A DNA stretch of 64,000 bases, from positions 10,230,001 to 10,294,000 of the forward strand of contig CM022667.1 of NCBI GenBank assembly GCA_012295275.1, in the 5' to 3' direction. This document shows positions 38,101 through 41,100 of this stretch, piece after piece. The translations under genes and the position numbers were made by a program. Numbering within the stretch: position 1 is the stretch's first letter; each line of letters opens with the position of its first letter. The notes below the pieces were generated by a model. It did no database searches. It saw nothing but the letters and a program-made list of their open reading frames with translations, and had not been told where the DNA came from. The DNA is from Chrysomallon squamiferum (taxonomy: Eukaryota; Animalia; Mollusca).

Positions 38101-41100
38101 TTATTTTTAAACAATGCCTTAGTTAACTGATGTAGATTTGTAATAATGTTTGTCGTAAAGGTAATCTCAGACTTTTCTGTAAATATTTTTTTCTAGTCAT
38201 TTTTTATTGTTGTTATTGTTGTTGTAATGTCTATAAACCTTTTTGTTTGTCATTGTTTTGATTCAGCACGAGGAGGCTACTGAAATGATGTTTGACCATT
38301 TAATTGAAGAAAACAGACTTGATCTAGAATTTGAAAAACATGGACTGAATGAAAAGGACAGAAAATTCATAAAACTGCTGATGAAGGGACTCCCTGACAA
38401 TATGTCAAAACAGGTGAGACATTAACGTACAACTATGAACTAGGATGCTTATTTATCAACTGAAATAATAAAAAGGCTGTCAAACTATAGATAGATTAAT
38501 AGATTGGTTGAGAATAATCTACACAATATACTATTTGTCTACTTCTCAGTGCAGTATTTTTAAAAATATATTTGAAGTCTATCAAGAAACAGGAAGCGAT
38601 GACGGAATAAATTTAATTTCCATTTAGATGTTTATTTACAAACTGACACAAACCTTTGCTAACAACAGAACACAGTTTATCAAGAGTTTGTAGTTAGTCA
38701 TTGTTGTTTTCTACAGGATTTTGTTTTAAGTCTAATGTTTCATTATTAATTTAAAAAAAAAAAATAAAAGTACAAAAACAAAAAAACCCAGTAATTTATC
38801 CCATTCATTTAAGTACATGATTAGGTTAGGCAAAAATAATTGAAATATTTTTCTTGTGATTATTGTGTGTAAAAAGATGATTACAGATACTGTATTCTCT
38901 GCTTTCACTGGTGTGCACTTGTGATATATATATATATATATAGTTATTTTTTTTACCCGTCAGGATTGGGGAAAGATTGGCAGGGATGAAAGCAAAAGTT
39001 TTCTGTTTGAGGTAAAGCGGTCACATTATTACTTAATAAACGTGCTGCATATTTTATGTTGATCATGAATGTGTTTCTCTATTTTTTAAACGTTTCTGAA
39101 TAGTAAAGTTTAGTGGATTCATAAACGGAATCATACATTATCATTCGACAAAGCTTCTCTTTTCTTTTTTGTTAACAATTATTATTTTTTTATTGTAAAT
39201 AGTGTAGTTTTAATAACCAAGTGTGAGAAGAAAAGAAGTCGCTCATCAATATAACAGCTGCCATTGCTTCCGATTTATAATGCCTTTATTATTTGATTAC
39301 ATTTTAAATACTGAGTCACCTGCGTGGCAGATTTGACATTTAGAGGTAACTGTACAACAACATTAGTCTGTCTCCTTGTCACTATACCGGATAATGGCAT
39401 CTGACAGAAATAACAATTTCATTTATTTTGAAAACAATTTTTTTTGTAAATAATAAATGCAGTAATTAATTAACTAATTAATTAAACTGTTTAAGATGGA
39501 AACTTGGATTGAGCGAGGCGTAATAATAATAATAATAATAATAATAATAATTATTATTATTATTATTATTGTTGTTGTTGTTGTTGTTGTTGTTGTTGTT
39601 GTTGTTGTTGCTGCTGCTGCTGCTACTAATGTTATTATTATTATTTTACTTATATTATTATTAATATAATATTTTTATATTTTTATTGTTTCATAAACAC
39701 TTTAACGTATTTGATTTTAAAACAATAATTTTCTTCAGATAGTTGCAAATAGATGCAACGGGATTGATGTCGACAAGTTCGACTACATCGCCCGAGACAG
39801 CTACATGCTTGGATTTCAAAACAGTTCCGATCATATTCGTTACATGAAGTTTGCCAAAGTTCTGAAAGCTGAAGATGAGCGATATCACATTTGTATGAGA
39901 GATAAGGTGAAATAATATTCATATCACAATCATTATCACATTCATCATCATCAAAACATCTTCATGATCAATAGTATGATTATCATAATCGTTATTTTAA
40001 TCATTATCATGAACCTGATTCAAGTTTGAATCAAGCATCTATTTAATGGTGCCATTAAGTACATTTGTTAAATACCATTTGCTATAAGTAATTTATAACA
40101 ATCTTTTCTGTTATTAAATTGTATAACTTGACATAATGACCTTATAACGATGATAATGATAACAACGACAACGATGATCATGAACATTAAGCTTCTGATG
40201 ACGAATATGATGATGATATATATATATATATAAACTTGATTTGCGCTCTGAGAAAATAGAATTTTAAAATATTAAGTATACGCCTTTTTTGACATTAGTT
40301 TTAAACTTTTTTCTAATTTGAAAATGATGTTTATCCATAAACTTTTACGTTTTCTCTGTATTTGATCTATCTATCTATATATCTACTTATCTATCTATCT
40401 ATCTATCTATCTATCTATCTATCTATCTATCTATATATATATATATATATATATATATATATATATATATATATATATATATATTTATATATATATCCGC
40501 AAATATAGACAAACTGTTGATATATTGTAACTTATTAACAGGAGGCCTTAGATATCTACGAGCTGTTTCAAACACGCTATGAAATTTACAAACGAGCCGC
40601 CAAACATAGAATGACCAGAACGTTCGAGCATATGTGAGTTTATTTCTGCTGAAATATTTTAGCAAAGTGTATTAAATACTGCTGTCATGTAAACAAAAAT
40701 ATAACTTTCTCATTTACTTTCAAGGCATGCGCTATTTTTATTTATTTTTGTTCTAAAAAATATAATAATAATAATAATAATAAAAATAATAATATTAATA
40801 ATAATAATAATAATTTGAAAAGAAGAAAAAATATGTCTTTCGGTTTTTAAAGCCCACAAGTACAGAAAAGGGGGGCTTTTAAAATGACAAATGTACCAAT
40901 TATTATTGGCAGAAAATTTATTATCAGCAATTCAGAATAAATTTGTTTAATTTTTTATCATTTTTATTACAAATTTACTAGCTGTTGCGTTTTTAGGTTG
41001 GCCCAAGCTTTCATTCAAGCAAATGATCATATATTCATTGAAGGAAGACAAGGGTGAGTGTACATTATTGTATCTCTGAAAGTTTGCTGTGCTACAGTTA

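Follow-up and report, generated by a model that had tools for sequence, protein, structure and literature searches.

The substrate pocket of SAMHD1 controls virus restriction as well as the breakdown of nucleoside drugs, and the locus presented here raises the question of what SAMHD1-like enzymes might do once one wall of this pocket has been taken away. In human SAMHD1, Y374 is described as forming, together with L150, the walls of the sugar pocket (PMC7311409, PMC7045340, PMC10485159), as the initial annotation of the locus had stated. The base is reported to be sandwiched between H215 and Y374, with Y374 facing the other side of C2' (PMC11074143), and residues 374, 375, 380, and 383 are named as determinants of base selectivity (PMC7045340). 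The human variants Y374A, Y374F, Y374I, L150A, and L150V are given as inactive on dGTP (PMC5207538), and for Q375A/N a 15-20-fold decrease in kcat is stated (PMC11074143). In a bacterial homologue, exclusion of the 2'-OH is assigned to V53, the equivalent of L150, and a Tyr stacks the base (PMC9257424); this Tyr would correspond to Y374.

In the window, i.e., the whole stretch of 64,000 nucleotides from Chrysomallon squamiferum analyzed here, several SAMHD1-like copies encode Ala or Val in place of this Tyr. The initial annotation had read the exchange as possible neofunctionalization toward rNTP hydrolysis, which could act against RNA viruses. Here, we describe the cluster, compare position 374 across the family and weigh this and other readings of the altered pocket.

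A tandem cluster of SAM-less SAMHD1-like copies

By tblastn, exon mapping and a six-frame motif scan, six SAM-less SAMHD1-like copies (A-F) were found as a tandem cluster in the window (Table 1), embedded in microsatellite-rich sequence of 28% GC. Human numbering was taken from the 626-aa chain 7UJN, aligned to mussel SAMHD1 as reference for all mapping. A SAM domain was not found in the window, which a SAM-bearing query matched only from residue 125 on. No match above the cut-off was obtained when four exons and two homologues were compared with Pfam.

Table 1. Positions of the SAMHD1-like copies and associated features in the window (human residue numbering).
Feature	Position	Strand	Remarks
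Copy A	77..4299	-	Extends beyond window edge; Ala374 (GCC) at 111-109; L150Q; Q375I
Six-unit array matching the one upstream of D	7510-9533	+	Upstream of B
Copy B	9696..18720	+	Broken in window; Tyr374 (TAC) at 16181-16183; L369; K375
Copy C	22390..29213	-	Frame open over exons 2-13; Ala374 (GCC) at 25009-25007; 13/13 catalytic residues and L150 kept
Six 45-nt exon-like repeats	32049..33981	+	Upstream of D; AG/GT ends and open ATG frame each
Copy D	35118..43287	+	SAM-less SAMHD1-like; 13 modelled exons; ATG at 35119; stop at 43285-43287
Copy D, exon 8	40542..40633	+	92 nt; AG/GT ends; helix alpha13 (human E355-M385); codon 374 GCC (Ala) at 40599-40601
Copy E	48435..55370	+	Open frame; Val374 (GTT) at 52155-52157; H233L, Y315T, R366Q, D218H
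Copy F	60389..63720	-	Ala374 (GCC) at 62966-62964; pseudogene as assembled
Orphan or degraded single-exon duplicates	4379-4525, 29293-29445, 45402-45502, 54312-54419, 56913-57451		Exon 2 (three times), exon 12, exon 3

The frames of C, D, and E are open over 12 modelled exons, with AG/GT at every modelled internal junction, and the 7 exons of A that lie within the window likewise keep an open frame. Only in B and D was an in-frame ATG located in the first exon, with none in the corresponding exons of A, C, and E; D is consequently the sole Ala374 copy with a located start codon and, among A, C, and D, the sole copy that can be read from start codon to stop codon. For a 27-nt candidate exon (42109-42135), consistent splice sites are absent in the other copies, and it was left out of the models. 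Two copies are damaged. In B, D311 is lost through an 18-nt deletion, exon 8 has a deletion of 10 nt, and H210L is present; F has lost about 3.4 kb, with exons 2-6 and the beginning of exon 7, and has a further 10-nt deletion in exon 10. The description of B as the pseudogene of the cluster thus applies to the window sequence, but B is not alone in this, F being broken as assembled as well.

Copy A is a recent duplicate of C, which it matches at 93% along some 6 kb. D, in turn, is a mosaic, with exons 4-5 and 8-12 most similar to those of C and exons 2, 3, and 7 as close or closer to B/E than to C. It begins with a basic exon of 16 residues, and this first exon and the repeat array upstream of it are nearly identical to those of B. 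Each 45-nt unit of the two arrays encodes a 14-residue basic peptide and is phased to chain into the first exon; judged from this arrangement, the arrays could serve as alternative starts or encode an N-terminal tail that is basic and variable. Moreover, the orphan SAMHD1 exon duplicates are signs of repeated local rearrangement.

In a tree of the copies, B splits first, followed by E, then D, then A and C, a branching order that fits a single loss of Tyr374 after the split of B; K375 is already found in B. When close relatives were sought with exons 2 and 7 as queries, none was found: the best exon 2 match reached 78% identity, and exon 7 gave one 51% match among 9 candidates. The window proteins share no more than 56-61% identity with any database domain and adjoin a long amphioxus branch on the tree, a placement that is unreliable.

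Codon 374 and the substrate pocket

Exon 8 aligns without gaps to R366-H376 of human SAMHD1, and all six readings of codon 374 given in the initial annotation were reproduced (Table 1), including the two base changes that separate TAC (Tyr) from GCC (Ala). Another aromatic residue in the gate would have offered a simple way out, but none was found: the register is fixed by R366 and H376, with H370 as a third anchor in copies other than D, and in a gap-free alignment anchored in this manner no register shift brings a different aromatic residue to 374. That the Tyr is left in a pseudogene only is correct for the window; it does not describe the species, in which a B-type transcript without the deletions, likely Tyr-bearing, is expressed (see below).

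The exchange at 374 is accompanied by L369I and Q375K/I/C and by altered residues 380 and 383, with H370Y in D and L150Q in A. Within the window, Leu369 goes together with Tyr374 in B, and the other five copies combine Ile369 with a small residue. Exon 8 of D reads, besides Ala374, Y367, I369, Y370, and K375. The changes cluster on the wall of the base and upper sugar (369, 370, 374, 375, 380, and 383). N367Y was considered as a substitute aromatic residue and ruled out, as Y367 stands beside Tyr374 in 125 of 281 domains, including that of the fungal structure 9MR6.

The catalytic machinery was found as initially annotated in A, C, and D, where all 13 of the metal, catalytic and 3'-OH residues checked are kept. 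The metal ligands H167, H206, D207, and D311 are intact in these copies and in E, B lacks D311, and F lacks the region. R164, H210, H215, H233, K312, Y315, and R366 are likewise present in A, C, and D, while the catalytic and phosphate-binding set is incomplete in E (H233L, Y315T, R366Q) and B (H210L). Because of these three exchanges together with D218H, E is likely a pseudo-enzyme and, with its uninterrupted frame and the spliced RNA contig seen in one of the runs, a candidate for an expressed one.

With human SAMHD1 (7UJN and others), C and D share the HD metal site, the catalytic histidines and Q149/L150/Y315/D319, i.e., the 3'-OH readers Q149 and D319 are kept, as are the phosphate clamps. 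The allosteric residues K116, N119, D137, Q142, R145, R333, R352, K354, H376, R451, and K455 are conserved in both copies. Differences in the allosteric sites are N358D, V156L in D, and K523, which is replaced or uncertain in D; the deoxy-selective wall of the second site (V/L156, Y157, H376) is retained. In exon 10 of B, C, D, E, and F, human L453-F454 is replaced by Ala/Val/Leu-Asp in all five copies, adjoining allosteric site 1, where R451 and K455 are kept. Unlike the single human gene, the window holds tandem copies, which differ from the human protein by the missing SAM domain and by Y374A, Q375K, L369I, N367Y, N358D, D218E and, in D, H370Y.

Position 150 is Leu in C, D, and E and Gln in A only, so that the loss or shrinkage of this residue expected of an rNTPase was not found in C, D, and E. 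The canonical dNTP-specific pocket (L150 plus Y374) is not present either, Y374 being replaced in A, C, D, E, and F. By sequence, the window copies are members of the SAMHD1 family without the canonical pocket. SAM-less SAMHD1-type dNTPases as such are known, e.g., from Rhizophagus irregularis (9MR6, PMC12042053) and from Caenorhabditis elegans (ZK177.8; 6PWY, PMC10485159). In contrast to the Ala/Val copies, both are described with Tyr374; 9MR6, the only PDB match of the D exon, shares Tyr at 367 with the window, and ZK177.8 is reported to reject CTP.

Column 374 across the SAMHD1 family

Homologues were gathered by exon 2, exon 7 and profile searches, and 351 database domains were mapped; domains without residues at 374, 376 or 315 or covering <45% of the region, including one misaligned Glu row, were left out. 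Column 374 is Tyr in 264 of these domains, Cys in 65, Leu in 20 and Phe in 2, with neither Ala nor Val among them. Ala at this site is thus not common in ordinary invertebrate SAMHD1. Tyr374 is present in 38/39 named invertebrate domains from the exon 2 search and one of the profile searches, and in 39/41 domains of SAM-bearing proteins. The 106 domains found by exon 2 alone, and hence independently of the helix, comprise 68 with Tyr, 29 with Cys, 5 with Leu, 3 with a gap and 1 misaligned.

Cys374 was met in oyster, clam, limpet, the hemichordate Ptychodera, the cnidarians Xenia and Actinia and many fish, and also in sea urchin and Xenopus, the database look-ups that named these hosts having been made on matches picked mostly for lack of Tyr. 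Among the matches are uncharacterized "SAMHD1-like" paralogues in which residue 374 is Cys or Leu (e.g., oyster XP_062597868, Actinia XP_031550911, Ptychodera XP_070539521, Lottia XP_009053771, and those of many teleosts), which share with the window copies a small residue 374, an intact catalytic set and frequent L369I, but carry Cys or Leu instead of Ala or Val and have separate origins.

On a tree built without the helix, parsimony gave 24 Tyr>Cys, 8 Cys>Tyr, 2 Tyr>Phe and no Tyr>His changes, together with one each of Tyr>Leu, Leu>Tyr, Tyr>Ala and Ala>Val, counts that may be inflated by gene conversion in fish clusters and by tree error; a second tree yielded 37 changes between Tyr and small residues. 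For comparison, the 293 changes in 11 other Tyr-consensus columns led to Phe in 94 cases, to His in 56 and to Cys in 12. Tyr>His is a transition as easy as Tyr>Cys. Exits to Cys with no His and only two Phe are therefore explained neither by drift, which would produce Cys and His about equally, nor by mild tolerance, which would favor Phe, and the pattern of column 374 fits selection for a cavity rather than plain decay.

Consistently, catalytic residues are not relaxed on small-374 branches, where they account for 24/110 changes (21.8%) against a background of 22.1%, and all 13 are intact in 27/37 Cys, 11/14 Leu and 149/181 Tyr rows. Conserved core columns are somewhat relaxed on these branches (27% vs. 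22%, p 3e-4), an estimate that is biased because the core was defined on Tyr rows. L150 is kept in 35/44 Cys374 rows, and the other nine have Met or Phe, neither of which is smaller.

A second position follows the first. Residue 369 is Leu in 264/264 Tyr rows and another residue in 22/65 Cys rows, and of the 14 changes at 369, 13 lie on branches with a small residue 374 (p 6e-8, the best value among 324 columns), with the profile search having favored Ile369 and small residues at 374. In a stricter test restricted to independent pairs, the link stood at 5:0 (median p about 0.06), and in the unbiased subset a variant of L369 was seen in 3/28 Cys rows vs. 0/64 Tyr rows. The window repeats the 369/374 link independently.

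Two further features of the sample were recorded. Cyprinid proteins (P0004, P0005, P0010, P0013, P0127-P0133 and similar) have two HD domains with Pfam PF00030 matches, one of the domains carrying Leu374, and in about 20 Tyr374 domains the HD motif is changed to YN. In the open-access literature, we found descriptions neither of a Tyr374 toggle, including SAMHD1 Y374C, nor of rNTP-cleaving SAMHD1 paralogues, and the wider convergent switch at 374 is apparently undescribed there.

Selection and expression of the window copies

Pairwise dN/dS among the copies is 0.36-0.74, with the exception of A-C (1.3-1.6, with a wide interval). For C-D it is 0.48-0.59, a signal that comes from the mosaic-looking exons 2, 3, and 7, and in exons 4, 5, 8, and 9 of this pair pN is at least as high as pS, on very few changes. 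In exon 8, pN is about equal to pS in most pairs and not significantly different from other exons; diversifying selection on exon 8 was significant in 0 of 6 pairs. The differences avoid conserved core columns both between A and C (1/92 vs. 12/174, p 0.04) and between C and D (7/98 vs. 40/243, p 0.02). As the C-D signal sits in mosaic exons and exon 8 has pN close to pS, constraint on the Ala copies since the change of Y374 is weakly shown by these sequence comparisons.

RNA contigs of three runs from the same organism were mapped on exons 7-8 of copy C. All three runs contained B-type contigs that skip the exon 7-8 intron exactly, carry B-diagnostic letters and have no gaps where the window copy B has its two deletions. 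These contigs have a T at the first base of codon 374, and the B-type transcript likely encodes Tyr374; its expression suggests that the B-type gene keeps the ordinary dNTPase job. A spliced E-type contig of exons 7-8 was found in one of the three runs. At the same exons, A/C/D-type contigs were seen in none of the three, although contigs cannot show absence.

In a DNA run, further exon 8 variants beyond those of the window copies were detected, and the cluster is therefore probably larger than the window. Run X1, mapped on 24900-25580, contained a contig with C/D-like flanks whose codon 374 begins with T (Tyr, Ser or Cys), as well as another exon 8 variant without an exact match to any window copy, the assignment being derived from depth sums. 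The X1 variants are probably more paralogues or alleles from outside the window.

Discussion

Our preferred reading, to which we give a probability of roughly 0.45, is that the intact copies C, D, and perhaps A are retuned triphosphohydrolases with an altered substrate preference. They would remain metal-dependent and nucleotide-activated and would hydrolyze, at the alpha-phosphate, a nucleoside triphosphate whose 3'-OH is free. Loss of the ring would result in a roomier pocket and low activity on the four standard dNTPs, and the preferred substrate would fill the new cavity; at a guess, the simplest candidate would be a nucleotide of the deoxy or ara type whose base is bulkier or modified. 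The B-type copy would keep the ordinary dNTPase role. The small-374 state (Cys, Leu) arose many times in SAMHD1 duplicates of other animals, and the window lineage took a two-base route to Ala. Since Ala and Val are absent from the 351 database domains, the family argument is borrowed from Cys and Leu. Counting against this reading are the reports on the human enzyme, in which Y374A is described as dead on dGTP (PMC5207538) and Q375A/N as slower (PMC11074143).

The same inactivity of Y374A (PMC5207538) speaks for an alternative that we regard as rather unlikely, though it survives best among the others: the Ala/Val copies could be catalytically dead or nearly so, either as decaying duplicates or as non-catalytic subunits, which would still bind GTP/dNTP and tune the Tyr374 enzyme in mixed tetramers. 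In fact, two of the six copies are broken, E is spliced despite the loss of three catalytic residues, the start codons of A and C were not located, and A has lost L150 as well. Moreover, dN/dS of A-C is not below 1 and exon 8 evolves with pN about equal to pS. Against this alternative speak 13/13 catalytic residues intact in A, C, and D, modelled internal splice sites that are all AG/GT, and A-C and C-D differences that avoid the conserved core. Across the family, loss of Tyr374 is followed by no relaxation of the catalytic residues, and L369I tracks the change here as elsewhere.

Hydrolysis of rNTPs, as initially proposed, would mean that without the Tyr ring the sugar shifts off L150, so that ribonucleotides become substrates, possibly to the detriment of RNA viruses. 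L150 and Y374 are indeed named together as hindering the ribose 2'-OH, i.e., the 2'-proR position (PMC7045340, PMC7311409), and the C. elegans orthologue, with Thr150 and Tyr374, is reported to reject CTP all the same (PMC10485159), which suggests that the Tyr may matter for ribose exclusion and keeps the idea alive. Recurrent removal of the ring would also fit a simple, repeatedly useful new substrate such as an rNTP. Against this stand L150, kept in C, D, E and most Cys374 rows, and structural accounts in which the clash of the ribose 2'-OH of a modelled CTP falls on L150 and Y374 lies on the ara side (PMC5207538, 10.1101/296624), in keeping with a Y374 that stacks the base and faces the other side of C2' (PMC11074143). 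The second allosteric site has, in addition, retained its deoxy-selective wall. As rNTPs are present at millimolar levels in the cell and include GTP, the activator of SAMHD1, their depletion would be costly. The exchange is no novelty of this genome either, as Tyr374 was also lost in other animals and a B-type copy, probably Tyr-bearing, is expressed. We therefore consider rNTP hydrolysis by these copies unlikely, and hold similar doubts about the broader version, in which duplicated SAMHD1 repeatedly gave rise to a second animal class (Cys, Leu, here Ala/Val, often with L369I) acting as an rNTP-depleting antiviral effector. Evidence for a role against RNA viruses was not found in this analysis, while an antiviral role in general is plausible by analogy with the known function of the family and its birth-and-death pattern.

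Least probable, in our view, is that the copies are ordinary, perhaps slower, dNTPases whose pocket is repacked by L369I, H370Y (in D) and neighboring changes, as L369I occurring only without Tyr374, Met/Phe at 150 in 9/44 Cys rows and eight Cys>Tyr changes by parsimony, suggestive of easy interconversion, would allow, since a dispensable ring predicts exits to Phe or His, of which 2 and 0 were found among 28 changes, and Y367 is no specific substitute.

Retuning thus remains our favored reading for C and D, and the family-wide convergent pattern is the stronger result; the rNTPase claim is the less likely reading. Within this pattern the window copies are the sole Ala/Val cases of the sample and not the best-supported ones, which are the Cys pairs of fish. 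In duplicated SAMHD1 genes, the Tyr374 ring has apparently been removed some 25 times with the catalytic machinery kept, whereas engineered human Y374 mutants are described as inactive on dGTP (PMC5207538). Natural sister pairs with and without Tyr are therefore available for direct study of the role of Y374 and of any new substrate.
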